From: a virus
IMG/VR virus record: IMGVR_UViG_3300037468_000183
Coordinates: 1 to 64,000 of that record
Reading direction: 5' to 3' (one strand)
Length of the DNA: 64,000 bases
Shown here: positions 2,260 to 62,489 of the stretch, one piece after another
Position numbering within the stretch: position 1 is the stretch's first letter
Layout of the letters: each line of letters begins with the position of its first letter
Position numbers and translations under genes: made by a program
The notes under the pieces: generated by a model
Database searches by the model: none
What the model saw: only the letters and a program-made list of their open reading frames with translations
Told to the model about the DNA's origin: nothing

Positions 2260-2398
2260 CCTGGCTGATATCGCGGCGGTGCTCGGTACGCTTATGCTGG
2301 CGGTGGGTTTGGGGCTGTACGATTGGCGATTGGTATTGATCCTGTTCGGGGCGATTTTGTGCGGCGGCGGAGTGTGGGCGGCCACACGGGAGCATTAG
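2246..2398 (+). CDS. Small two-TM membrane protein
   Basis: TTG start, hydrophobic; usual position between terL and portal. Confidence 0.55.
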   Translation: MKRVSLADIAAVLGTLMLAVGLGLYDWRLVLILFGAILCGGGVWAATREH

Positions 2399-2415
2399 CG
2401 CATGGCGGTGCCGGT

Positions 2416-3279
2416 ATGAGCGTGACCTTGCTCCTGGGTGATTGCACGAAGCTCATGGCCGACATTCCGAGCGCGTCCGTGGATGGCCTTATCACTGATC
2501 CACCATATCCCGAAATCTCGCGCGACTACGGCCGCATGACTGAGGCGGCCTGGTGGGACATGATGATGGTGGTTTGCGCCGAGACGCGGCGCATCCTGAA
2601 GCCTACGGGCAGCGCGGTGTTCATCCTGCAACCGAACAGCCGCAAGGTTGGCTCAATGCGGGGCTGGCTGTGGGAGTTCATGGCCTGGGTGTGTCGCGAG
2701 TGGAACATGGTGCAAGACGTGTGGTGGTGGAATATCGCGGCGCTTCCTGTGGGCGGAGCCACAAACGGAGATTTGACGCGCGCAAGTATCAAGGCGTGCG
2801 TTTGGGCCGGCTCCGACAACTGTTATAGGTATCAGGAGCGTATTTTATTGCCAGAAGCGGATAGGACTCAAAATCGCAATTCTAGCAGAGAGAAAAGGCT
2901 AGGCGGTGAAAACATCCTGCGCACTGCATCCGGGCAAACCGTTCGCGTCTCGAAGATCGGAGATGCGGCGATACGAAGGGGCGGGGTTACGCCTTACAAC
3001 TGTCTTCCAGTGGGCACGAACAGCATAAACGGCAATAGCGGTCACGGCGCAGGCACACCGCTCGAACTGGCGAAGTGGTGGACGCGCTACATCGTGCCAC
3101 CGGGCGGGGTGGTCTGCGATCCATTCATGGGCAGCGGCACGATGGGCTTGGCGGCGCTGGCCTACGGGTGCGACTTCATCGGCATGGAGAAGGAAGATCG
3201 ACCGGGCTACTACCCGACTGCGACGGCACGACTCGCAGACGCGCAAGAGCAGCCACGGCTTGAGGCGGTGCCAGCATGA
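2416..3279 (+). CDS. Amino (N6A/N4C) DNA methyltransferase, beta class
   Basis: LLLGDC, ITDPPY (motif IV), DPFMGSGT (motif I). Confidence 0.9.
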   Translation: MSVTLLLGDCTKLMADIPSASVDGLITDPPYPEISRDYGRMTEAAWWDMMMVVCAETRRILKPTGSAVFILQPNSRKVGSMRGWLWEFMAWVCREWNMVQDVWWWNIAALPVGGATNGDLTRASIKACVWAGSDNCYRYQERILLPEADRTQNRNSSREKRLGGENILRTASGQTVRVSKIGDAAIRRGGVTPYNCLPVGTNSINGNSGHGAGTPLELAKWWTRYIVPPGGVVCDPFMGSGTMGLAALAYGCDFIGMEKEDRPGYYPTATARLADAQEQPRLEAVPA

Positions 3280-3295
3280 CGACAAGGATTAGCGC

Positions 3296-4645
3296 ATGGG
3301 CCTATTAGCGGACTTGCTGCGACCGGAGCGGCGCTTCCAGAGCATAGCCGATATCGACGCGCTTTTTGAGCGTGGCCCAACGACGTTGTCCAGTACGGGC
3401 TTACCGATTGGCCCGACGACGGCGCTGTCCAGTCCGGTCGTGTATGCCTGCGTCAACGTGCTGGCGCAGACGATTGCGGCGCTACCATTGCTGGTCTATC
3501 GCCGTTTGCCGGATGGCGGCAAGGAACGCGCGCCGTATCATCCGCTGTATGACCTGATGCACACCGCGCCTAACCCGGAGATGACCGCCTACGAGTTTCG
3601 CTCGTGTCTGGTGGGCCATCAAGCCTTGTGGGGCAATGCCTACGCCGAGATTCAGCGCAGTGACGCCAAGATTCTTGCACTGTGGCCGTTGCGCCCGGAT
3701 CGCATGACCGTGCAGCGCAACGAAGCGAGTGAGTTGGAGTACAGCTATCGGCTGCCGGACGGAAGATTAAAGTTGTTCCCCTTTGCCAATATCATGCACT
3801 GGCGGGCGTTGTCATCGAATGGCATCCTGGGCTACTCGCCGATTCAAATGGCGGCTGAGGCGGTGGGTCTCGACCTGGCGGCGCGTCAGTACGGGGCCAG
3901 ATTCTACGGCAACGACTCGCGGCCCGGTGGTGTACTCAAGAGCTCCGGCAAGCTGAGCGACGCCGGGGCCAAGCGCCTGAAAGATTCTTGGGAGTCTGCG
4001 CATCAGGGCTTGTCGAATAGCCAGCGCGTGGCCGTGCTGGAAGACGGTGTCGAGTGGCAACAAATCGGCATCCCGCCTGAGCAAGCGCAATTTTTGGAGA
4101 GCCGCAAATATCAGCGTTCCGAGATTGCCGCGCTGTACCGGGTGCCATTGCATATGGTAAATGACTTAGAGCGTGCAACTTTTTCTAACATCGAACATCA
4201 ATCATTGGAGTTCGTCAAATTTACGCTGTATCCGTGGTTAGTGCAGATCGAACAGGCCATTCAACGCGATTTATTCAGGATTTCTGCCGGAAAACGCACA
4301 CATTTTGGCGAGCATTTGGTAGATGGTTTGCTGCGCGGCGATATCCAGAGTCGTTATACGGCATACCAGATTGCGCGGCTGAACGGCTGGATGAACGCTA
4401 ATGAGATTCGCGAGCTCGAGAACATGAATCCAATTGACGATGCCGCAGGCAAACAATACTGGATGCCTGCCAATATGACGGTGGCGGGCGAGCCACGTCC
4501 GCAGGCTGCGCCGTTGCCGCAGGCGGAGCCGGAAGCCGAGCCGGAGGATGATGCCGACGAAGCGCCGGAGGACGGCGAAAGTTCCGACGAAGCGCAGAAT
4601 GCGGATAGATTCGCGCTAGTTCGAGACAAGGATAAATCGCAGTGA
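3296..4645 (+). CDS. Portal protein, HK97 family
   Basis: VYACVNVLAQTIA, PNPEMT, GNAYAEI, QFLESRK, TFSNIEHQ, NEIRELEN. Confidence 0.96.
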   Translation: MGLLADLLRPERRFQSIADIDALFERGPTTLSSTGLPIGPTTALSSPVVYACVNVLAQTIAALPLLVYRRLPDGGKERAPYHPLYDLMHTAPNPEMTAYEFRSCLVGHQALWGNAYAEIQRSDAKILALWPLRPDRMTVQRNEASELEYSYRLPDGRLKLFPFANIMHWRALSSNGILGYSPIQMAAEAVGLDLAARQYGARFYGNDSRPGGVLKSSGKLSDAGAKRLKDSWESAHQGLSNSQRVAVLEDGVEWQQIGIPPEQAQFLESRKYQRSEIAALYRVPLHMVNDLERATFSNIEHQSLEFVKFTLYPWLVQIEQAIQRDLFRISAGKRTHFGEHLVDGLLRGDIQSRYTAYQIARLNGWMNANEIRELENMNPIDDAAGKQYWMPANMTVAGEPRPQAAPLPQAEPEAEPEDDADEAPEDGESSDEAQNADRFALVRDKDKSQ

Positions 4646-6147
4646 CGCGCAGTGTGTTGGTCATCGGCCCGCCCTTATCGGGAAAATCTACCTGGGTTAA
4701 AGAACATGCCCAGGCCGGGGATTTGATTTGGGATTTCGATCTCGTGCATTCGGCCTTGTCGTTGCAGGACTCGCACCAACACATCGACAGTATTAAGCCG
4801 TATGTATTCGTCGTCCGAGATGCGATTTTCAAGCGGCTGAGAGAGCCAGGAATCGCTAACGCCTGGATTATTAGCTCGTCTCCTGAGAAAAGCCGGGTGC
4901 AGGAGCAGATTGACCAATTGGACGCGCAGGTGATGCCGCTCCTAGCTACACCGGAGGAAGCGCATCGCCGGGCGGACAAAACCGAACGACCAGCAGCTTG
5001 GCACGGCTACATCGATAATTGGTTTGCAAAAAATGACTGGACAGCGGACGATTTTCATGGGCGTTTGTTCGAGGAGCAAAAACGGACGCTATCCGGGACA
5101 CCGCAGATTTTGCAAGTACCGATGAAGCCGAGCCGGAAGGAGAACCAGATGCCGTGGGTGATTAATCTTCACGAGGATGGCCCGGACAAAGGCCGTTTCT
5201 GCGTGCACAAGGAAAACGCCGATGGCAGCGCGGGGGAAGCCATCGCCTGCCATGACACCGAGAAGCAGGCGAAGGCGCATCAGGCCGCTTTGTATGCCAA
5301 CGAGCCGGAGGCGAATGCCAAGCCGAGCCGACCAGCGCGTCCGCTGCGCGACGATGGCAGCGAGCGCCGCACTCTGCTCGTGGAAGACATTACGCTGCGC
5401 ACCGACGAACAAACCGGCGCGCCGTTGGTCGAGGGCTATTCGTCGGTATTCAACAGCCTGAGCGAAGTCCTGTTCGAATGGGATAACGGCCGCTTCCGCG
5501 AGCAGGTTGCGTCTGGTGCGTTCACGAAATCGCTGCGCGAGCAGAACGTGCCGCTGTTGGTAGAGCACGCCAATCTGCCATTGGCGACTACCGGATCGGG
5601 CACACTGAAGCTGACAGAGGACAGTCACGGCTTGCGCTTCTCCTCGTCGCTCGACATGAGCGACCCGGACGTGCAGCGCCTCGTGCCCAAGATGCGCCGC
5701 GGCGATCTAAACAAATGCTCGTTCGGCTTCATCCCGATTCGGGAGTCCTGGGACGAAAAGACCAAGCCGCGCACACGCACGCTGCACGAGGTGCGCTTGC
5801 TGGACGTGTCGATTGTCGGACGGCCCGCTTATCCCGCGACCGAGGCGAAGGTGCGCAAGGCGCTCTTGGATGAGGGCTTGGATGCCGAGAGCATCACCGA
5901 TGTACTGGTGCGCGTGCGGCAAGGATTGCCGCTTGAAGACAACGACGTTGACCTGTTGCGGTTGCTCGTGCGGACGTGCAGCCAGCAACTTGCCGAGATA
6001 GCCACTGCGCCGGAAGTCGCGCCGCTCCTAGCTGAGCACCCGACCGAAAGCCCACAGCCGGCTCCGCTGCCAAGCGCGCCGAGTCCTGAGACTCACTCGC
6101 TGGCCTGGTACAGGACACGACTCATAAAACTGGAAGGTGTAATATGA
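4642..6147 (+). CDS. HK97-type prohead protease with an in-frame N-terminal P-loop kinase-like domain; internal start at 5149
   Basis: GPPLSGKST at N-terminus; protease motifs GYSSVFN, LLVEH, CSFGF, DVSIVGRPAYPAT; AAGGAG before ATG 5149. Confidence 0.88.
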   Translation: MTRSVLVIGPPLSGKSTWVKEHAQAGDLIWDFDLVHSALSLQDSHQHIDSIKPYVFVVRDAIFKRLREPGIANAWIISSSPEKSRVQEQIDQLDAQVMPLLATPEEAHRRADKTERPAAWHGYIDNWFAKNDWTADDFHGRLFEEQKRTLSGTPQILQVPMKPSRKENQMPWVINLHEDGPDKGRFCVHKENADGSAGEAIACHDTEKQAKAHQAALYANEPEANAKPSRPARPLRDDGSERRTLLVEDITLRTDEQTGAPLVEGYSSVFNSLSEVLFEWDNGRFREQVASGAFTKSLREQNVPLLVEHANLPLATTGSGTLKLTEDSHGLRFSSSLDMSDPDVQRLVPKMRRGDLNKCSFGFIPIRESWDEKTKPRTRTLHEVRLLDVSIVGRPAYPATEAKVRKALLDEGLDAESITDVLVRVRQGLPLEDNDVDLLRLLVRTCSQQLAEIATAPEVAPLLAEHPTESPQPAPLPSAPSPETHSLAWYRTRLIKLEGVI

Positions 6148-7451
6148 CCCTGGAAGAAATGCGGGCAAAACGCTTGGAATTGGCGCGGAGTGCGCGGGCC
6201 ATTCTGGCGGTCTGTGAAGACGAAAAGCGCGAACAGACGCGCGAAGAAGAACGCATCCTGAAGGACTTCATCGAGCGCGGCGAAGCGATGGCTGCGCTTA
6301 TCGAGAAAGAGGCGCGCGTGCAGGCGTTGGAGGAGATGACCGAACGCTCCCACGCCGAGCCGACCAAACCGGACGTGAGCGAGGAAGACAATCGCCAGGC
6401 GCAGGGTTCACCCCGGCGCTTCCGTTCCTTCGGCGAGCAGATGCAGGCGGTGATTCGGGCCAGCCAGCCGGGCGGGGGTGTCGATCCCCGACTGTTGACG
6501 CGTGCCGTGATGGGCATGGGGGAAGGGACGCCTTCGGACGGCGGCTTCCTGGTGCAGACCGACTTCGCGGCCGAACTGCTGAAGCGGACTTACGAGACCG
6601 GCCAGGTTGCCAGTCGTTGCCGGCGCATCGGTATCAGCGCCAACGCCAACGGGCTGAAAATCCCGGCCATCGACGAGACCAGCCGCGCGGACGGTTCCCG
6701 CTGGGGCGGCGTGCGCGCCTACTGGACGGCTGAGGCGGGCGACAAGTCGAACGCCACACCGTCCTTCCGCCAACTCGAGCTGAACCTGAAGAAGCTGACG
6801 GGCTTGGCTTACGCGACCGACGAACTGTTGGCGGACGCCAGCGCCCTGGAGAACGTGCTGATGCAGGCGTTCTCGGAGGAGTTCGGTTTCAAACTGGACG
6901 ACTCGATTATCAATGGCGACGGTGCAGGCAAGCCGCTGGGCGTGCTGGTTTCCCCGGCGCTAGTCAGCGTCACGAAAGAAGTGGGCCAGCCCGCGGCGAC
7001 ATTGCAGCCGGAGAACCTCATCAAGATGTGGTCGCGCTGCTATGCGCGCTCGCGCTTGAATGCGGTCTGGTTCGTCAACCAGGACATCGAGCCGCAACTG
7101 TTCACGATGGGTATCCAGGTCGGCACGGGCGGCGGCACGGTCTACATGCCACCGGGCGGCCTGAGCGGGCAACCCTACGGCACGTTGTTTGGGCGGCCCG
7201 TGATCCCCATCGAGCAATGCGCGACGCTCGGCACGAAGGGCGACATTCTGCTGGCGGATATGAGCCAGTACATCCTGATCGACAAGGGCGGCATGCAGAG
7301 CGCCTCCTCGATCCACGTGCGCTTCACCAACGATGAGAGCGTGTTCCGCTTCGTCTACCGCGTGGACGGTCTACCGATCTGGCAGTCGCCGCTCACGCCG
7401 TACAAGGGCAGCGCGAACACGCAAAGTCCGTTTGTGGCCATGTGGGGATAA
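6144..7451 (+). CDS. Major capsid protein, HK97 fold with N-terminal delta domain
   Basis: Coiled-coil N-terminus, DGGFLV, IINGDGAGKPLG, LFGRPVI, FRFVYRVDG. Confidence 0.95.
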   Translation: MTLEEMRAKRLELARSARAILAVCEDEKREQTREEERILKDFIERGEAMAALIEKEARVQALEEMTERSHAEPTKPDVSEEDNRQAQGSPRRFRSFGEQMQAVIRASQPGGGVDPRLLTRAVMGMGEGTPSDGGFLVQTDFAAELLKRTYETGQVASRCRRIGISANANGLKIPAIDETSRADGSRWGGVRAYWTAEAGDKSNATPSFRQLELNLKKLTGLAYATDELLADASALENVLMQAFSEEFGFKLDDSIINGDGAGKPLGVLVSPALVSVTKEVGQPAATLQPENLIKMWSRCYARSRLNAVWFVNQDIEPQLFTMGIQVGTGGGTVYMPPGGLSGQPYGTLFGRPVIPIEQCATLGTKGDILLADMSQYILIDKGGMQSASSIHVRFTNDESVFRFVYRVDGLPIWQSPLTPYKGSANTQSPFVAMWG

Positions 7452-10537: not shown

Positions 10538-11440
10538 ATGGCAAACGAGCTACAGGCGCACGGCACCACCGGTCAGACTGTCTACTGCGTGCTGCGGAAA
10601 ATGAGCAGCAGCGGCAAAGTTTGGAACGGCAGTACTTTCGTACCGCTCAGTACCGGCGATTGGACGGGCTACGCGCTGACCATGACCGAGTCGGGCAGCA
10701 CCGGCACGTATCGGGCATCGATGCCCGCGGTGACGGCGGGGTTGTATCACTTCACGGCCTACATCCGGGCCACTGGCACGCCACTCGTCAGCGATGTGCA
10801 ACTCGACGCCGACGAATATACCTGGGCCGGCACCAGTACCATCGCGTTGACCAACCTCACGCGCTACGCGACCGCGGCGGAACTCAAGAACCGCATCGGT
10901 ATCCGGGATATGCTGGACGATACGATCTTAGGCCAGGTGCTCGACGCCGTGAGTCGGGGTATTGATAACTACTGCGGACGCTCCTTCTACGCGTCGGCGG
11001 CGGGCGTGGTGCGCTACTACACGCCACTCTCCGCCGAGATGGTCTTGATCGATGACTGTATCGCGCTGAGCGCCGTCGCGACCGACGACAACGCCGACCG
11101 CACGTATGCCACGACCTGGGCCACGACGGACTACGATCTGCTGCCGGAGAATGCCGCAGCCAACGGCGCGCCGTATGACACCATCGCCACGACACCGCTC
11201 GCCGCTTACCGCTTCCCATCATGGCGGCGGTCACTGAAGCTGACGGGCGCGTGGGGTTGGCCCGCCGTGCCCGATCCGGTACACGAAGCCTGTCTGATTC
11301 AGGGTTCGCGTGTGTTCAAGCGCAAAGATGCGCCGTTCGGTATCTCCGGCACGCCAGAGATGGGACAAATGCGCCTGGGGCGGCTTGACCCGGATGTGCT
11401 GTGGATGCTGGAAACCTATCGCAAACTGGTAGTGGCCTGA
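10538..11440 (+). CDS. Head-tail adaptor (gp6/gp15-like) with extra N-terminal domain
   Basis: YATAAELK..IDNYCGRSF..WGWPAVPDPVHEACL..LETYRK. Confidence 0.82.
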   Translation: MANELQAHGTTGQTVYCVLRKMSSSGKVWNGSTFVPLSTGDWTGYALTMTESGSTGTYRASMPAVTAGLYHFTAYIRATGTPLVSDVQLDADEYTWAGTSTIALTNLTRYATAAELKNRIGIRDMLDDTILGQVLDAVSRGIDNYCGRSFYASAAGVVRYYTPLSAEMVLIDDCIALSAVATDDNADRTYATTWATTDYDLLPENAAANGAPYDTIATTPLAAYRFPSWRRSLKLTGAWGWPAVPDPVHEACLIQGSRVFKRKDAPFGISGTPEMGQMRLGRLDPDVLWMLETYRKLVVA

Positions 11441-11913
11441 TGGAAATCACAATCAACGCGACGGGCATCACCGAGGCGCTGGCGGCGGTCGATCCAAAGA
11501 AAGCGTACATGATTATCGATTTGTGGTATCTGCGTTCGACTGACTACGCCAAGCGCGAGCTACAAACACGTTCGCCAGCCAGACTCAGGCGCAAGGTGCG
11601 CGTGTTGTTCGACGGTTACAAACCGCACCGTTGGGCGCGTGTCTTCGTCAAGTCGCCGTTGGCGCATCTGCTCGAAGGTGGCACCGGGTCTAGGGGCGTG
11701 TCCCCCTTCAAGCACGTCGGCAGACATTGGCCGAGCACGAAGGGCATCATGGAGGCGACGGGCCTGCCCAAGCCGGAGGCTTTTCTAGTGGCACGCAGCA
11801 TCGGCTTGCGCGGTGGCAATCCACCCAAGCCGTTCCTGCAGCCGACCTGGAATGTGGTTATGCCGCGCATCAGTGAGATGGCGGAGCAGGCGGCGGCGGA
11901 GGTGCTGCGATGA
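11440..11913 (+). CDS. HK97 gp10-like neck/tail completion protein
   Basis: AHLLEGGT and PKPFLQP motifs; synteny. Confidence 0.7.
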   Translation: MEITINATGITEALAAVDPKKAYMIIDLWYLRSTDYAKRELQTRSPARLRRKVRVLFDGYKPHRWARVFVKSPLAHLLEGGTGSRGVSPFKHVGRHWPSTKGIMEATGLPKPEAFLVARSIGLRGGNPPKPFLQPTWNVVMPRISEMAEQAAAEVLR

Positions 11914-34560: not shown

Positions 34561-35400
34561 TCAGTCCTCCGTCGCGTCGAGCGGCATCTGCACGGCGCGC
34601 TCCGACTCGTGCGGGAATAGCGGCGCTTGCAGTTGCGCCCGTCCGACACGCTCCCGCGTCAGTGCGATGTACTCAGCGGCAATGTCGATGCCGATAGCCC
34701 GGCGTCCCAACGTAACCGCCATTTTCAGCGTAGTGCCCGATCCGCACATAGGATCAAGCACCACGTCGCCGGGATTGCTCCAGGAGAGGATGTGATCGCG
34801 CGCCAGGGCTTCGGGGAAGATCGCAGGGTGATTTGCTGCGTCAGGATCAGAATAGCCGTTCGTTCCGTGTGATAGGATGTCCCATACGTTATCCTTCACG
34901 CGCATTCCGCCCCCGATTCTGACATTAAGAACTTCTTGGGTGCCTCTTATTTTTGATCCTACGACAAAACCACCATGCCCAGTCGATTTTACTTTTATCA
35001 GATTGGCGGTGGTAGGAGACTCCTTTGACATGATAAACATATACTCAAAAACTGATGCGTAACGGACAGTTTCAGGGAACTGGGGAGCACTCCGGCGATA
35101 GATCATCGTATCGTGAAGGTTGAAGCCCAGGCCCATGAACCCAAGCGCCTGCCGGAAGCTCGTGCCCGTCTCGCTGCCGTTGACCGTCGCATCGGCAACG
35201 ACCCACACGACCACGCCGCCCGGCTTGGTGACGCGCCACAGTTGCGCGGCGATGGCCTCGAAGTCGAAGGTGTAACCGCGGTATTCGCGAAGTCCGTCAT
35301 ACGGAGGAGAAGTCACTGTTAGATCAATCGAGCCGTCTGGAATGTGCGCCGCCATGACAGCAGCGCACTCTCCGGTATACAGCGTCACGTCATTGCTCAT
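34561..35400 (-). CDS. Amino DNA methyltransferase, beta class (SPPY, probably m4C)
   Basis: VTSPPY, HPAIFP, DPMCGSGT. Confidence 0.92.
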   Translation of the reverse strand: MSNDVTLYTGECAAVMAAHIPDGSIDLTVTSPPYDGLREYRGYTFDFEAIAAQLWRVTKPGGVVVWVVADATVNGSETGTSFRQALGFMGLGFNLHDTMIYRRSAPQFPETVRYASVFEYMFIMSKESPTTANLIKVKSTGHGGFVVGSKIRGTQEVLNVRIGGGMRVKDNVWDILSHGTNGYSDPDAANHPAIFPEALARDHILSWSNPGDVVLDPMCGSGTTLKMAVTLGRRAIGIDIAAEYIALTRERVGRAQLQAPLFPHESERAVQMPLDATED

Positions 35401-35467
35401 AGTTGCTTCCCACCGGCTCGCAGGTCGCCACGTCCACGAGCAGATCATCGCCGCCATTCTCCGGGCG

Positions 35468-35545
35468 GATGTACAGCCGGTGTCCGTCCGCGTGGCCGCA
35501 GATGACGACGGCGGGATGACCTTCGTGCAGGATGCGGTCGCCGGG
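35468..35545. repeat. 78-bp direct repeat, copy 1
   Basis: Near-identical to 36271-36348. Confidence 0.85.
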
Positions 35546-35564
35546 TAGGGGACGTGGCTTGCGC

Positions 35565-36218
35565 TCATGGCAAATATGGCCTCTTGGGAAGCTCTGACCA
35601 ATAGTCGCAGTCGGCAAGCCTTACGGGGCTGAAATCCTCCGGGTAGATCAGCACCATCTGGCGCGCCGGTGAATACACGCCGGGCCATACGACGCCGTTG
35701 TGGACTACGAGAATCGTGCCCGCCTGCTTGGGAGCTTCAACGGTGAGATTCCATTCGACCTTTACGATATTGCCGCTGTCCTGCTGATCCTCGATGCGTT
35801 CAAAAAGCATGATGTTCCCCCCATCTGCCATGATTCCGTCAATGTCGTCGCGAAACTGATGGATGGTTTCGATGAGTCGCTGCGCTGCTGAGCCAATCCA
35901 GCGATCATGCTCAGCGTCGTATACCGTCAAACCACGCTCGGCCAGGGCATCCAACAAGGTCGCCCGCAAGACTATAAATTCTTCGTCGCTCATTTTTAGC
36001 AGTCCTCCTACCTGTATTACATCATTCGGTCGATCACTTGGATTGCTCGGCCAGCACCAGCGGCGCGCTGCGAGAGCGTCCAACTCATCTCTGAGCCGCT
36101 GCCTTTCTACCTGCAAATTGCGGATGCACATGCTCCACAAGTGTGTCACCGGCACTATCTCGCCGGTATCCGAGTTCGTGGTTTCATCTAACATCTCATT
36201 GCAGTATTCACATCTCAT
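35565..36218 (-). CDS. Hypothetical protein
   Basis: 217-aa ORF, N-terminal CEYC. Confidence 0.6.
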   Translation of the reverse strand: MRCEYCNEMLDETTNSDTGEIVPVTHLWSMCIRNLQVERQRLRDELDALAARRWCWPSNPSDRPNDVIQVGGLLKMSDEEFIVLRATLLDALAERGLTVYDAEHDRWIGSAAQRLIETIHQFRDDIDGIMADGGNIMLFERIEDQQDSGNIVKVEWNLTVEAPKQAGTILVVHNGVVWPGVYSPARQMVLIYPEDFSPVRLADCDYWSELPKRPYLP

Positions 36219-40327: not shown

Positions 40328-40585
40328 CTATACGTGCCTCAGCCAATCGGCTTCTGCGCTCAGATATTCCGCATGGCGTTGCGCAACAATGTCACACTCG
40401 GCGTGATACGCGCCTTCCAGTGCTCGGATGGTCGCATATAACTCGGCGTCAAACGGCTTGCTGCTGTCGGCAAATGAGTCGAGCACCGCATAGAGCGTGG
40501 CGCGCGCTTCGAGCATCTTGCCCACGGCAGCATACTCCGCGTGTTGTGCGTCGAGTCGCACCAGGTCTCTGTCGCGTGTTATCAT
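40328..40585 (-). CDS. Hypothetical protein
   Basis: ATGA overlap, RBS. Confidence 0.55.
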   Translation of the reverse strand: MITRDRDLVRLDAQHAEYAAVGKMLEARATLYAVLDSFADSSKPFDAELYATIRALEGAYHAECDIVAQRHAEYLSAEADWLRHV

Positions 40586-40902
40586 ACGTCCTCCTCCGGG
40601 TCGGGCGCGTCGTCGGCGTCGAGCGTCGGGCAGGTCTCGCGCAGCACGGCGTAGCTGTCCGTCTGCACGTAGGGCGGATTGCTGACAATCGCCAGGATGC
40701 TGTCCGGCGTGTGGTAGATGTCTGACGGCGGCGGCTTGCCACCGGGATAGCGCGCTTCGGCGGCCGCTTCGACAACCTTGAGATCATCTGACGGCATCTG
40801 GTTGCCCTTCGAAATATAGAGCCACCACAGCGCCCCTTCGACAAAGGCGCGCCGCAGATCGTCGGCTGGCAGCCGTCCCTCGATGTGATCGACCCAACTC
40901 AT
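40582..40902 (-). CDS. Hypothetical protein
   Basis: ATGA overlap; RRAFVEGALWW. Confidence 0.55.
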   Translation of the reverse strand: MSWVDHIEGRLPADDLRRAFVEGALWWLYISKGNQMPSDDLKVVEAAAEARYPGGKPPPSDIYHTPDSILAIVSNPPYVQTDSYAVLRETCPTLDADDAPDPEEDV

Positions 40903-41189
40903 GCGTCCTCCCTCGCTGCGTTCTCCGCAGCATTCGGCGCGAGCGCCGTCCGAATCACGTCACGCGCTTGCATCACGTTGACCGGCAGATATACGTGGTA
41001 TTGGCTGCTCTGCTCCAGCAATCGCTGCACGTGCTCTAGCGCCGTGCGCAGGCGCGCGTTCTCGGCTTGCGCCTCATTTCGGACCAGTCGATACTGCTTC
41101 GTCAGGACAAGCACGTATTGCAGGCGCTCGCCGGTCGATTGCAGATAGTCGCGCAGGCGGTCGTTCTCGGCTTGCAGATCGTCTGTCAT
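40899..41189 (-). CDS. Coiled-coil hypothetical protein
   Basis: AENDRLR/AENARLR repeats. Confidence 0.55.
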   Translation of the reverse strand: MTDDLQAENDRLRDYLQSTGERLQYVLVLTKQYRLVRNEAQAENARLRTALEHVQRLLEQSSQYHVYLPVNVMQARDVIRTALAPNAAENAAREDA

Positions 41190-43072
41190 GTGCGGGCCTC
41201 CGGTTTGCGAACAAACCATACATCCTCGTTCAGAATCGCCGCGTGCGGATTCTTCTCATTGGCGAGTCGGCGGAAAAAACTCACCTTGTCGCATTTGAGC
41301 GACTTGTCCTCACCGAGCAGCCCCAATTGCGCGCCGTGATCGGTCGTCTTCCAGGCCGTGACGTGGAGCAGCGGATCGAAGCCAACTGATTCACACAGCG
41401 CCAACCACTGCTCCCCGAAGGGGACGCGCTGCTTGTTGCGCACGAAGTCGCCAGTGATCCAGGCCGCCACTGCGCCAGGCTTGAGCACGGCGTAGGTCTG
41501 GGCGACGATCTCGCGCGCGGCAGTCCAGAACGTGTCTGCCCGCAATGCGCCGACTTGCCCATCTGTGTCGCCGTAATTCGACTGAAACATAGCAGCGCAT
41601 CCAATGTTGGTAGGTGAAACGAATACATCCGGGCGCTTTGTCGTAAACTCACCTTTGGCGTATCGTTCGGCCTTACGTTGGCGGGCCGAATCATCATTGA
41701 TCCCTGTATTGACGCTCGCCTCATACGGCGGACTGCTCACCGTCGCATCGAAGCCGTTGCCCGCTGGCATGGCGCCGAGTTGGCCGGGGGTGGCGCCGTA
41801 GCGTGCGCCCAGGGCCTTGCGCTGCTCCCAGCCGGCCGTCCCGCGAACGAAGTTGCCGTCAGCGTCGCGCAGTCCGCTCGCGCCTTCGTCTCCGCCTGGC
41901 CCGCCGTCGATGCGCGTCTCGGAGTAGGGTGGACTCGAAACACACGCCGAATACCCCTGCATCGTCAACGCCTGCGAGTGCTGGCCGGGCTTGTTGCCGG
42001 TGAGCTTGTCCGTGTCGATGCCGTTGCCGCCGTGCACGGTGTTGGCGCTGTAGGGGGGCGAACCAACTGCCGCCGAGTAGTCGCCGGGTGGCATCTGCTC
42101 CAGTTGCCCCGGTGTTGCGCCATAGCCAGGACGACGCGCTGTGCCTTCGGCGGCCCGGCGCGCGTCTTCAGCGGCATCCAAGCGCACGCTCTGTCCATCG
42201 TGACCAGTCGTGCCCGCATACGGCGGACTCGCAATCGCGCCATCGTAGCGCAGCGCCGCGTCGAAGTCGCCGGGTGGCAGCGCGCCCAGTTGGCCGGGCG
42301 AGGTGCCGTAGGACGCCACTTGCATTGTTCTTCCGGGGCGCGCTTCGGCATTGAATGCTGCATCTGTGCTTTGTAAGCTCCCCTGAAACGGCGGCGACGA
42401 CACGACCGCATCCGCTTCCGCCACGATCTCCGCCAGCCGGCGCGAGTCGCCTTGCAGCACGCGCGCCGTGCCATAGCCGGGGAAGTGCGGCGCGTAGCGG
42501 GCGCGCCATGTCTCCAGGTTGCCGGGCTGATATTCGGCGCAAGGCACGGCGCGCTTGGCTTCCAACTGGCGCAGATGTGCCTGAGCTACAGTCAATTCGC
42601 TGGCGTAGTTCTCGCGCTCAGCATCCGTGATAGGGCGGGGTGGTTCCCAAGTGGCATCGGTTTCGTCATACCTGCCGGACGATTGGATGCCCGTTTTTAG
42701 GATGGCCTCCAGGTCGCGCACGTGTTGGCGCTGGCGGTCAAGCTCGGCTTGGTTCTTGGCGCACGCCGGGCACAGATGCAAAGTGTTGCAGGTGTAGCCG
42801 CGGCACAAGTCAACGAACTTCGGCTCCAATTCCATGCCCGTCCAGTGCAGGCCATACAACGCGGCGTGGAAGGCGCAGCCGCCGATGCCGCCGAACGGAT
42901 CAACAACTTTGTCACCAGGGGCCAGCCAACCTTCGGCCAGCATGTGGCGATAGATGCGCTCGGCCAGGCCGAAAGATATCTTTGCCGGATGCGCGTAGGC
43001 TTCAGCGGCCAACGGTGCGCTCTGCCACGAACCATCATAGCAGCCGAACCACTCAGTTTGCATTGGGGCCAT
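41186..43072 (-). CDS. Atypical amino-methyltransferase with five tandem SPP(Y/F) modules
   Basis: HPAK, DPFGGIG (motif I), MELE, QGDSR; SPPF/SPPY at aa 226, 282, 338, 380, 447; VLKPG. Confidence 0.85.
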   Translation of the reverse strand: MAPMQTEWFGCYDGSWQSAPLAAEAYAHPAKISFGLAERIYRHMLAEGWLAPGDKVVDPFGGIGGCAFHAALYGLHWTGMELEPKFVDLCRGYTCNTLHLCPACAKNQAELDRQRQHVRDLEAILKTGIQSSGRYDETDATWEPPRPITDAERENYASELTVAQAHLRQLEAKRAVPCAEYQPGNLETWRARYAPHFPGYGTARVLQGDSRRLAEIVAEADAVVSSPPFQGSLQSTDAAFNAEARPGRTMQVASYGTSPGQLGALPPGDFDAALRYDGAIASPPYAGTTGHDGQSVRLDAAEDARRAAEGTARRPGYGATPGQLEQMPPGDYSAAVGSPPYSANTVHGGNGIDTDKLTGNKPGQHSQALTMQGYSACVSSPPYSETRIDGGPGGDEGASGLRDADGNFVRGTAGWEQRKALGARYGATPGQLGAMPAGNGFDATVSSPPYEASVNTGINDDSARQRKAERYAKGEFTTKRPDVFVSPTNIGCAAMFQSNYGDTDGQVGALRADTFWTAAREIVAQTYAVLKPGAVAAWITGDFVRNKQRVPFGEQWLALCESVGFDPLLHVTAWKTTDHGAQLGLLGEDKSLKCDKVSFFRRLANEKNPHAAILNEDVWFVRKPEART

Positions 43073-43087
43073 GATCTTCCTCTCTCG

Positions 43088-43441
43088 TCAAGACTCTGAT
43101 AGATACGTCTCAATCTCAGCGGCGGCGTCCAGCCATTGCCAACACACCGCCACGCGATACCCCTGCACTCGCAGGGCGTCGATCCACCATTGCTGCGCCG
43201 CGCTGATGCGACCGCCTTTGGCCTTCATCTCGATGAACAGGCCATGATAGCCGTGACGGGCGCAAGGCAAAAACAAATCCGGCACTCCAGATTTTTCGCC
43301 TTCGGCCTTGAGTCGGGTCGCCGTGGCAATGTGTCGCCAGCCGCCGTTGGGTGTGTGGTGCAGCAGCGCCAACTCCGGCAGGCGCTGCTCGTTGTACGCC
43401 GTCCACTCGAATAGAGCGATCTGCTCTGAGGATTCGCTCAC
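43088..43441 (-). CDS. VRR-NUC domain nuclease
   Basis: ESSEQ, HTPNGG, GVPDL, IEMK, AQQWW. Confidence 0.9.
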   Translation of the reverse strand: MSESSEQIALFEWTAYNEQRLPELALLHHTPNGGWRHIATATRLKAEGEKSGVPDLFLPCARHGYHGLFIEMKAKGGRISAAQQWWIDALRVQGYRVAVCWQWLDAAAEIETYLSES

Positions 43442-61095: not shown

Positions 61096-61124
61096 TTGCG
61101 TTTTCGCGCATCCGGGTGTATGCT
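61096..61124 (+). promoter_or_regulatory. Possible promoter for the ParB-MTase/terS2/terL2 operon
   Basis: TTGCGT-17nt-TATGCT; ATG 9 nt downstream, no RBS. Confidence 0.45.
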
Positions 61125-61133
61125 TGTGACGCC

Positions 61134-62489
61134 ATGAATCTAAGCGAGTTTCGTCCCGCACGAGTCAACGCAAATCGCCACACGGCGCGCGGCATCGGCG
61201 CGCTCGAAAAGAGCATCCAGTCAGACGGCTGGATCGGCGCGATGACCACCGCCGCCGATGGCGAGATGATCGCCGGCAGCGCCCGCATCGAGACGGCGGC
61301 GGGCGTGTTCGGCGTGGACGCGGAGCCGGTTGTCATCCACAGCGACGGCAAGCGGCCTATTGTTGTCATTCGCGATGACATCCCGAACGCGTCAACGAAG
61401 GTCGCGCAACGGCTGGCGCTGGCGGACAATCGCATTCACCAGCTTGACCTGGACTTCGACGTGCAGGTGCTCACCAGCTTCGATGCCGACGTGCTGGAAG
61501 GCTTGTGGACGGGCGACGAAATCAGCGACATGGGCCAGCAGTGGGCGGATGAGCAGAGCCGCAACGCCGAAGACCCCGGCGCGCAAGTGGACAAGGCGGA
61601 GGAACTGCAAGCCAAGTGGCACGTGCAACCCGGCGACCTGTGGGCGATGGGTGACCACCGTCTGCTGTGCGGAGATTGTCGGGAGCCTGCATCCTGGGTG
61701 CGCTTGCTTGCGGGCGTCAAGGCCAATGGCGTTTTCACATCCCCGCCTTATGCCGAGCAGCGCAAGGAGCAATACGGCGGGACACCAGCCGCCGAATACG
61801 TGGCATGGTGGGAAGCGGTGCAGGCCAACGTCAAGGCGCATCTCGCGCCCGATGGTTCGTTCTTCGTGAACATCAAGCCGCACTGCGCAGACGGCGAGCG
61901 TGTGCTGTACGTGTTTGATCTGGTGCTGGCGATGAAGCGGGAGTGGGGCTGGCGTTTCGTGGATGAGTTGTGTTGGACAAACCGGGGATTCCCTGGCGAG
62001 CCGCAAGACAGATTCCAGAACGCTTTTGAGCCGGTATATCACTTTTCGGATGGAAAAATCAAGTTTCGCCCAAAGGCCGTTTGGCATTCAAGCGATTCGG
62101 TTCCCGTACACAAGGCGGGGCAGAACTTCAGGCAATCCAATCGAGGAAACGGCTTTGAGAGTCCAGACGTAGAAAGCGGGATGGCCTACCCTCGCAATGT
62201 CCTGGATATCCCAAATGGCAATGGCGGAGATTCGCGACACGCTGCCGCCTTTCCAGTCGCGTTGCCTGACTTCTTCGTGCGCGCCTACTCGGACGCCGGC
62301 GACGTGTGGCTTGATCCGTTCTGCGGCAGTGGCACGACGATTGTCGCCGCGCACAACAACAAGCGGCGGGGATTCGGAATCGAGATGCTGCCGAAGTATT
62401 GCGCCGTGATCCTGGAACGCATCAGCGGCCTGGGGATTACGCCTGCACTGTTGAGCAATGGGGGAACTGTGGCCGATGGCGGGCGCTGA
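61134..62489 (+). CDS. ParB-like N-domain + amino DNA methyltransferase fusion
   Basis: NANRH..SIQSDGW..IAGSAR..LADNR; GDHRLLCGD, FTSPPY, HAAAFP, DPFCGSGT. Confidence 0.9.
   Translation: MNLSEFRPARVNANRHTARGIGALEKSIQSDGWIGAMTTAADGEMIAGSARIETAAGVFGVDAEPVVIHSDGKRPIVVIRDDIPNASTKVAQRLALADNRIHQLDLDFDVQVLTSFDADVLEGLWTGDEISDMGQQWADEQSRNAEDPGAQVDKAEELQAKWHVQPGDLWAMGDHRLLCGDCREPASWVRLLAGVKANGVFTSPPYAEQRKEQYGGTPAAEYVAWWEAVQANVKAHLAPDGSFFVNIKPHCADGERVLYVFDLVLAMKREWGWRFVDELCWTNRGFPGEPQDRFQNAFEPVYHFSDGKIKFRPKAVWHSSDSVPVHKAGQNFRQSNRGNGFESPDVESGMAYPRNVLDIPNGNGGDSRHAAAFPVALPDFFVRAYSDAGDVWLDPFCGSGTTIVAAHNNKRRGFGIEMLPKYCAVILERISGLGITPALLSNGGTVADGGR

Follow-up and report, generated by a model that had tools for sequence, protein, structure and literature searches.

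A sediment phage methyltransferase gene with five tandem copies of its central strand and catalytic motif, and the viral family around it

The DNA considered here, called the window below, is a stretch of 64,000 nucleotides (positions 1 to 64,000) from the IMG/VR record IMGVR_UViG_3300037468_000183, which represents an uncultured sediment phage, is 104,080 bp long and has an estimated completeness of 95%. On the minus strand of the window, at 41186-43072, lies a gene for a protein of 628 amino acids (aa) that reads as an orphan phage amino-methyltransferase dependent on S-adenosylmethionine (SAM), with a core related to the Pfam family PF01555 and its motifs in a permuted order; DNA is most likely its substrate. 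An earlier note on this DNA had remarked on a single SAM-binding motif I accompanied by five copies of the catalytic motif IV, and this is borne out by the open reading frame (ORF). Motif I (DPFGGIG) occurs in single copy at aa 58-64 (42881-42901), and motif IV occurs as VSSPPF at aa 226, IASPPY at 282, VGSPPY at 338, VSSPPY at 380, and VSSPPY at 447 (in that order at 42386-42397, 42218-42229, 42050-42061, 41924-41935, and 41723-41734). Five or more SPP[YF] motifs were found in none of 20,000 shuffles of the protein. The parts of the gene are listed here from its upstream end, after the whole frame, with the predicted local distance difference test (pLDDT) scores of an AlphaFold2 (AF2) model where they are given.

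41186..43072, minus strand: methyltransferase with five-cassette array, whole ORF, 628 aa and a stop codon, frame open
43076..43086, minus strand: Shine-Dalgarno-like site, GAGAGAGGAAG; the ATG begins 3 nucleotides (nt) further on
42797..43072, minus strand: SAM-binding half, part 1, aa 1-92, with AHPAK (aa 27-31), strand beta1 and motif I, and beta2 (ELE); pLDDT above 90
42521..42796, minus strand: optional insert, aa 93-184, a Cys cluster at the base of a long helical hairpin
42413..42520, minus strand: SAM-binding half, part 2, aa 185-220, beta3 with GDSRR and then helix alphaC
42230..42397, minus strand: cassette 1, aa 226-281, SPPF, a 25-aa loop, YGTSPGQLGALPPGD, then the strand of the next cassette; its loop type is first and last elsewhere
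42062..42229, minus strand: cassette 2, aa 282-337, SPPY, a 31-aa loop, YGATPGQLEQMPPGD; its loop type has 16 members, 13 internal, 2 first, and 1 last
41936..42061, minus strand: cassette 3, aa 338-379, SPPY, an 18-aa loop, KPGQHSQAL end
41735..41935, minus strand: cassette 4, aa 380-446, SPPY, a 41-aa loop, YGATPGQLGAMPAG; its loop type has 28 members, 20 internal, 5 first, and 3 last
41543..41734, minus strand: cassette 5, aa 447-510, SPPY, a 49-aa loop, YGDTDGQVGAL; AF2 strand at aa 441-446
41189..41542, minus strand: catalytic half, aa 511-628, alphaD (DTFW...), beta5, alphaE, a beta6-beta7 hairpin, SFFRRL; pLDDT above 90

All five cassettes are built to one plan, namely a beta4-like strand, SPP[YF], a loop of 18-49 aa, and an end of the YGxTPGQLG type. 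The loops are rich in Gly, Asp, Asn, and Arg, are not markedly basic, and differ from copy to copy, as the earlier note had stated; it was likewise right that four of the five end in YG..(P/D)GQ(L/V), at aa 255, 317, 425, and 500, the end of cassette 3 being degenerate. Upstream, a stretch of the form (L/M)P.G..DA.VS precedes each motif IV and resembles the canonical pre-motif-IV stretch. In the solved methylase TTHA0409 of Thermus thermophilus, the counterpart of the cassette end is YEDTPGQLG, just ahead of helix alphaD. In that relative it is the element that normally follows motif IV, and each of the five copies has a real motif IV's full context. We considered that the Gln of PGQLG might act as a PrmC-like substrate mimic, and dropped the idea; because TTHA0409 has PGQLG too, the element is structural. 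The array as a whole lies between beta1-3 and beta5-7, with cassette 1 in its normal place after beta3 and alphaC, and cassette 5 running normally into alphaD. The site between beta1 and beta4 has been described as the topological switch point of the fold, which tolerates permutation (PMC7544214).

The core places the protein among amino-methyltransferases in an unusual arrangement. It passes the Pfam model PF01555 (N6_N4_Mtase) at 32.6 bits against a cut-off of 26.7, over aa 26-89 only, corresponding to profile positions 160-218 of 221. As this class requires, an HPxxKP-type element (AHPAK) stands ahead of motif I, and motif IV follows a beta4 strand, here in five copies. Columns that are invariant in the core include G208, D209, S210, and R211 across 95 aligned sequences, where AF2 places a strand (202-207) and a helix (210-220), and, in the catalytic half, F515 and W516 of alphaD and F599 and F600 of SFFRRL. 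Among solved structures, TTHA0409 (2zie) is the closest by sequence (E 7.4e-6) and also the top Foldseek match; the sequence alignment pairs residues 205-274 of TTHA0409 with aa 16-91, and residues 55-138 with aa 499-575, from the end of cassette 5 onward. Because these two parts align in the opposite order, the halves are permuted relative to the beta class: motifs X-I-III come first here and IV-VIII after them, rather than IV-VIII, a recognition domain, and X-I-III, and the five-cassette protein has no separate recognition domain. When the structural alignment was made to respect order, the top matches were tRNA guanine-N2 enzymes, namely aTrm11 (5e71; Z 19.1, rmsd 3.1 A, 179 aligned, 23% identity), Trm14 (3tlj; Z 19.0, rmsd 2.5 A, 180 aligned), and TrmN (3tma; Z 18.6, rmsd 2.3 A, 174 aligned), with identities of 20-23%. 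The predicted fold and motif order are thus those of the Trm11/Trm14/TrmN type, and a shared fold is no demonstration of a shared function.

PF01170 (the guanine-N2 RNA type) is missed at 17.8 bits against a cut-off of 22.3, TIGR01177 reaches 22 bits against a cut-off of 316, PF00145 (the C5 core) has no match at E<=1, and nothing in NCBIfam comes close to its cut-off. PHROGs returns only the unnamed family phrog_12517 and generic methyltransferase families, and BFVD only generic viral methylases, the best being gp294 of Bacillus phage G (E 8e-6, TM 0.48 on the target's length). The Foldseek matches include the rotifer enzyme N4CMT (8s9m). In all five copies, the first residue of motif IV is Ser, as in N4-cytosine-specific enzymes; Ser at this place is typical of N4-cytosine DNA enzymes, and the chemistry of SPPY/SPPF has been described (PMC10406627). 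The Ser hints at N4-cytosine as the methylated base, and is no proof of the product.

The protein belongs to a large viral family that has neither a name nor a curated model. At E<=1e-30 the relatives form 956 clusters (50% identity), a number that rises to 1743 at E<=1e-10; almost all of the 956 are metagenomic or viral, and relatives lie on at least 137 IMG/VR viral contigs. Among 50,697 records of isolated phages, no tblastn match was found at 1e-5, and an alignment-based search of about 186,000 species genomes found relatives in only six, all on contigs of metagenome-assembled genomes (MAGs). When the single protein served as the query, neither viral contigs nor JGI metagenome contigs yielded a relative. 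The members share a signature across alignments A1-A3: W.GCY..SW...HPAK...DPFGG and GDSRR in the N-terminal half, at least two cassettes, and DTFW and SFFRRL in the C-terminal half. The number and order of cassettes, which the earlier note had proposed to compare among homologues, vary widely, with 1-12 copies per protein (median 3, among 315 complete proteins) and given loop types at varying positions. Single-cassette forms make up 9 of these 315 proteins and about 2 of 58 complete IMG/VR genes. The 315-protein sample is biased to long proteins; the IMG/VR set, which was retrieved by core motifs alone, gives a similar picture.

Several members depart from the common layout. In one sub-clade, the variant motifs SSPF, SAPF, SPAY, and SPVY are conserved, and some of its proteins lack any canonical SPP[YF]; it includes P0034, P0069, P0150, P0168, P0169, P0177, and P0180, and in some of these the sole canonical motif is internal (third of four). 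A 74-aa protein on seven contigs, the longest 62 kb (P0362), is a free-standing single cassette whose loop is of the same type as that of cassette 3 in the window; it also has a strand, SPPY, and YGTAPGQLG, and could be a split form or a remnant. A scan of all fetched loci for free-standing cassette ORFs gave only chance-level matches, and most other short relatives look like truncated or frameshifted genes. One viral genome, IMGVR_UViG_2721755344_000002 (114 kb; L059, L064), carries two family members, one with two cassettes (352 aa) and one with a single cassette (286 aa). On a 101,061-bp contig of a Caldilineales MAG (L087), a six-cassette methyltransferase with 41% identity and a DnaB-like helicase with 65% identity occur together (4248-6545 and 10651-11541); their gene order differs from that of the window, and the contig gives a weak hint of a host in the Chloroflexota.

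Across the family, cassettes are equally well kept wherever they stand. In the 315 complete proteins, canonical SPP[YFWH] is present in 93.8% of first, 94.9% of internal, and 92.2% of last cassettes. Loops of the same type are about 70% identical, compared with about 55% for the cores that carry them, and this pattern is alike for internal-internal (n=2089), internal-terminal (997), and terminal-terminal (508) pairs; since the pairs were picked by similarity, the informative part is the lack of difference between position classes. The 1149 loops fall into 439 types, and of the 49 frequent types, 28 are found in all three positions (first, internal, and last). Some types do show a preference: of 10 cassettes with the type of the window's cassette 5, 8 stand last, and 82 of the 92 of type 0 are internal. 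Types are hardly ever repeated within a protein, with 1 same-type pair in 1876, where 15 would be expected from all between-protein pairs or 7.8 from non-equivalent positions only (p=3e-6 to 0.004, the latter with 7.8), against backgrounds that shared ancestry inflates.

Cassettes have also moved between proteins. The best matches of the window's cassettes lie at other positions, in proteins with more diverged cores; cassette 5, for example, is 66-67% identical to cassettes in proteins whose cores are 42-58% identical. P0029 and P0122 have near-identical cores and different cassettes, P0123 equals P0122 minus the first cassette, and in P0126 and P0127 the only cassette has an "internal-type" GQLGAMP end fused directly to alphaD. 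At aa 188, P0122 has SPLF in its last cassette, its first being SPPY, and its single-cassette relative P0123 has SPPF there; the SPLF might reflect an error, or a last motif knocked out in nature.

The gene has been sampled in sediment and freshwater-sediment metagenomes from several studies, and independent sediment runs hold 62-88% of its sampled words, with contigs that tile most of it at shallow coverage. Gain or loss of cassettes between strains does occur. In a contig from run X3, 19 other letters take the place of those between 41929 and 42075, for a net loss of 126 nt, and in translation cassette 3 is exactly absent, in frame and with a sensible new junction (...PPGDYSAVISSPPYSETR...), on thin support (depth 2, 39 nt on the shorter side). 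A contig from run X5 joins 41186 to 43061, the ORF's own borders (depth 4, 30 nt on the shorter side); a strain that occurs alongside may have a diverged allele there, or be without the gene. Among the sequencing runs listed as holding the gene, none is an RNA run. The best direct DNA repeat within the gene spans 57 nt at 65-72% identity, which marks the repeats as old, and Tandem Repeats Finder (TRF) found no tandem array in it; with repeats so short and diverged, recent duplication and slippage were both discarded. Because the junction repeats are only 65-72% identical over 57 nt, frequent recombination within the genome is unlikely, and no recombinase or inverted repeat was found near the gene. 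The earlier note's suggestion of an array tuned by recombination within this genome is therefore not upheld.

Structure prediction was the means by which the earlier note had proposed to see which SPPY enters the core. In the AF2 model of the five-cassette protein (95-sequence alignment, mean pLDDT 72.5, both half-cores above 90), the last cassette is seated, through its strand 441-446, and residues 222-440 are mostly below 50 pLDDT. In the model of the two-cassette homologue P0029 (mean pLDDT 82.6), the first cassette is seated, through strand 129-134, and the second has low confidence. Each model seats one cassette, and the position of the seated one differs between the two. We also docked the internal cassette 4 (aa 368-437) in trans to the N-half (aa 1-220) and C-half (aa 508-628) with SAM. 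It scored an ipSAE of 0.87, compared with 0.54 for the best control; 58 of 80 solved complexes pass the mark used, as do 2 of 110 mismatched pairs. At least 74% of contacts were common to three runs, and partner pLDDT was at least 56. The docked strand 374-379 sits between beta1 (55-58) and beta5 (535-539), and the YGATPGQLG end is in contact too. In the model, then, cassette 4 proves compatible with the seat, which is a separate matter from its use there. An arrangement with all the beta4-like strands side by side in a widened sheet was dropped, as it would part SAM from the catalytic half and neither AF2 model has it.

The earlier note had also pointed to a Cys-rich, coiled-coil insert at aa ~90-180, and the Cys positions (90, 95, 101, 104, and 178, of which C90 is variable) together with AF2 helices at 102-127 and 150-172 (pLDDT above 90) confirm it. 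Inserts occur at this site in about 20% of the family, most commonly of the form GCDCTG...HWCPxC. That of the window is nearly unique, with a resembling insert in only 1 of 120 homologues, at 28% identity. C95, C101, C104, and C178, judged by their pattern in the sequence, would make a candidate Zn site, and our guess is that the insert forms a Zn-stabilised arm for DNA contact or dimerisation.

The methyltransferase gene lies in a phage replication module, with primase-like, replication initiator, DnaB-like helicase, PAPS-reductase-like, and VRR-NUC nuclease genes as neighbours. The stop codon of the VRR-NUC gene is at 43088-43090, 15 nt ahead of the methyltransferase ATG, and the two genes are packed operon-like. 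A 106-aa ORF two genes downstream of the methyltransferase (40582-40902, minus strand) contains ILAIVSNPPYV, a beta4-like strand with a motif IV; it is without other methyltransferase motifs and has no Pfam, PHROG, or Atlas relatives, and the resemblance may be chance. PF01555 matches number seven in the 104-kb virus, the five-cassette gene included, and only this one (41186-43072) has the multi-cassette layout. The other six are as follows.

Window 2323-3279, plus strand: further PF01555-type gene
Window 34561-35688, minus strand: further PF01555-type gene
Window 61116-62489, plus strand: further PF01555-type gene
Record positions 66947-67156 (L083), 75152-76078, and 100790-101002, past the window: further PF01555-type genes

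Five of these six carry a single DPPY or SPPY each, and no motif IV was found in the stretch fetched for the sixth (L083). Seven PF01555-type genes in one virus of this size suggest an unusually heavy investment in methylation and strong selection for methylation that is broad.

Because all cassettes are intact at every position, arrays collect different types, and single-cassette forms are rare, the use of more than one cassette is the simplest account of the family. We tentatively favour, at somewhat less than even chances, a reading in which cassettes are seated alternatively and the outcome is multispecific protective methylation. There is a single seat, with one strand at a time between beta1 and beta5. 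During folding, or after a partial re-opening of the halves, any one cassette would take this seat and the unseated cassettes would loop out. The population of enzyme molecules would then carry several active sites with different recognition loops, several target sequences would be methylated, and one small gene could shield the phage from several host restriction systems. Put with a little more reserve, the protein would be an instance in nature of alternate-frame folding, in which five central strands that exclude one another, each with its catalytic motif and recognition loop, share one two-part Rossmann core and yield an enzyme mixture with different DNA targets. The computations themselves carry the anatomy, its spread through the family, the equal constraint on cassettes, the shuffling of loop types without repetition, the single seat in each model, and an internal cassette that fits this seat; the substrate, the methylated base, the loop as determinant of specificity, and alternative seating are what we infer. 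The earlier note's claim of interchangeable cassettes holds on the evolutionary scale, in that they are complete and distinct, the same loop types serve in first, last, or only positions, near-identical cores carry different cassettes, and an internal cassette docks in the model. Its further claim, of multi-specific methylation, is a hypothesis, as are the use of more than one cassette by the enzyme and its methylating activity itself.

Several points weigh against this reading. We know of no natural enzyme that chooses among alternative central strands. The unseated cassettes would be a disordered loop of ~40-220 aa beside the active site; in the AF2 models these cassettes, and even the seated loop, are mostly below pLDDT 60, and the models are silent on use. 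The success of the docking may stem from likeness to solved methyltransferase folds, and the background for the non-repetition of types is inflated by shared ancestry. Fast exchange of cassettes between phages could keep unused copies intact without any present-day use. Lastly, DNA as the substrate is not certain, because the nearest structural matches that respect order are tRNA guanine-N2 enzymes.

Much of this would sit well with one fixed working cassette, first or last, the others being spare modules shuffled by recombination between phages and/or loops that contact DNA, so that the enzyme has a single specificity at a time. In both AF2 models a single cassette is seated and the remaining ones have low confidence, the exchange seen in the swapped near-identical cores and the cassette-3-less strain is fast relative to point mutation and could preserve unused copies, the preferences of the cassette-5 type for the last position and of type 0 for internal ones fit fixed roles, and the same want of a known strand-choosing enzyme tells in its favour. 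This is the main rival, and we consider it somewhat less likely than the favoured reading. Motif IV and loops at internal positions are no less conserved than at terminal ones, single-cassette forms are rare (9/315; ~2/58 in IMG/VR) and on this account the extra cassettes would be costly baggage, junction DNA in this gene is too diverged for frequent recombination and comes with no dedicated recombinase, and AF2 is inconsistent on which position would be the fixed one. More improbable is an array that is not catalytic at all, serving as a flexible binding platform or spacer (for host proteins, oligomerisation, or unstacked bases of single-stranded DNA) in a protein that is inactive or works through one cassette. 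The array is mostly disordered by prediction, its loops are not markedly basic, and the sub-clade that has only SSPF, SAPF, SPAY, and SPVY would suit such a role; every cassette of the window protein, however, keeps its strand, its SPP[YF], and an end of the TTHA0409 type, the same loop types form the only cassette of otherwise normal single-cassette enzymes, and a spacer has no need of types that do not repeat.

The choice of substrate raises a different alternative, in which the enzyme acts on RNA or on another amino group (guanine-N2 or a glutamine of a protein) in place of DNA, and the cassettes adapt it to several RNA or protein targets. The order-respecting matches to tRNA N2-methylguanine (m2G) enzymes (5e71, 3tlj, 3tma), the weak PF01170 match of 17.8 bits, the JGI label of Trm11 on some relatives, and the Gln kept in the PGQ(L/V) end of every cassette are consistent with it. 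We find it quite improbable, given that PF01170 stays under its 22.3-bit cut-off and PF01555 passes, that the ~25 residues ahead of the core have no N-terminal family match and are too short for a THUMP or other RNA-binding domain, that the Ser of motif IV is typical of N4-cytosine DNA enzymes (PMC10406627), that PGQLG is also in TTHA0409 and hence structural, and that the gene lies in a DNA-replication module of a phage with six other genes of DNA-methylase type. An artefact, whether an assembly error, a pseudogene, or functionless duplicates in decay, is hardly credible. The record is derived from a metagenome and the contigs that cover the gene are shallow, but the ORF is intact and has its Shine-Dalgarno-like site, independent sediment runs hold 62-88% of its sampled words with contigs that tile most of it, the layout is common to hundreds of clusters, and a motif IV that is ~94% canonical at every position is incompatible with decay.

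Use of several cassettes would make this the first known natural enzyme to pick among alternative core strands, and a compact means for a phage to escape many restriction systems at once. In that case the family would also offer a library of small loop types (439 in 1149 cassettes), whose DNA motifs could be worked out and put to use in the engineering of methyltransferases with chosen specificities. With a single cassette at work at a time, it would still be a striking example, within an arms race, of an active site that evolves by fast shuffling of modules. On both views the family is large and viral (956 clusters), lacks a curated model, has no match in the isolated phages searched, and is the subject of no paper that we could find; in the literature, we found no description of a repeated motif IV.

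Among known enzymes, TTHA0409 (PDB 2zie/2zif/2zig), a putative beta-class N4/N6 DNA methylase of PF01555, has in common with the window protein the HPA(x)K-type element, motif I, Y-x-D-T-P-G-Q-L-G, and alphaD-beta5. It differs in having one motif IV and the order IV, target recognition domain, I, whereas the window protein has I before IV, five motif-IV units, and no separate recognition domain. M.PvuII and the rotifer enzyme N4CMT (8s9m) likewise have a Ser-Pro-Pro-Tyr/Phe motif IV and the SPPF...YG arrangement, but they form dimers, follow the beta order, and have one catalytic loop besides a recognition domain, and the methylated base that is known for them would be a matter of analogy for the window protein. 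Trm11, Trm14, and TrmN (PF01170) have the same I-then-IV order, but with one motif IV that carries Asp or Asn rather than Ser, and the window protein has no room for a THUMP domain. In engineered alternate-frame-folding proteins, the two copies of a duplicated segment compete for the same place in the fold, and whichever is left out is disordered (PMC12344692, PMC5844902), and structure predictors are unreliable on the frame preferences of such proteins (PMC12344692). These proteins show that the principle is physically possible; they are man-made, with two frames and duplicated terminal segments, in contrast to a natural family with up to 12 frames and a repeated central strand, for which such behaviour is a proposal.

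The closest functional parallel is with the 5-methylcytosine (m5C) enzymes of the Bacillus phages SPR, phi3T, rho11s, and H2, in which tandem modules of ~40-50 aa, each employed singly with one core, give several specificities, according to the studies cited in PMC8936443 (Wilke et al. 1988; Guenthert and Reiners 1987; Lange et al. 1991). These too are phage-encoded orphans whose modules differ within an enzyme and are shuffled between enzymes, as in the family described here. They differ in their C5 chemistry and Pro-Cys motif, and in that only the recognition domains are repeated (between motifs VIII and IX), with a single catalytic loop, whereas in the window protein the core beta-strand and the catalytic motif themselves are repeated; multispecificity has been shown there and is a hypothesis here. 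The analogy drawn by the earlier note is apt in function and fails in structure, as it is the catalytic strand rather than a recognition domain that is multiplied. If the alternate-frame reading is true, the protein would be the amino-methyltransferase counterpart of these multispecific phage m5C enzymes, reached by the swapping of active sites.

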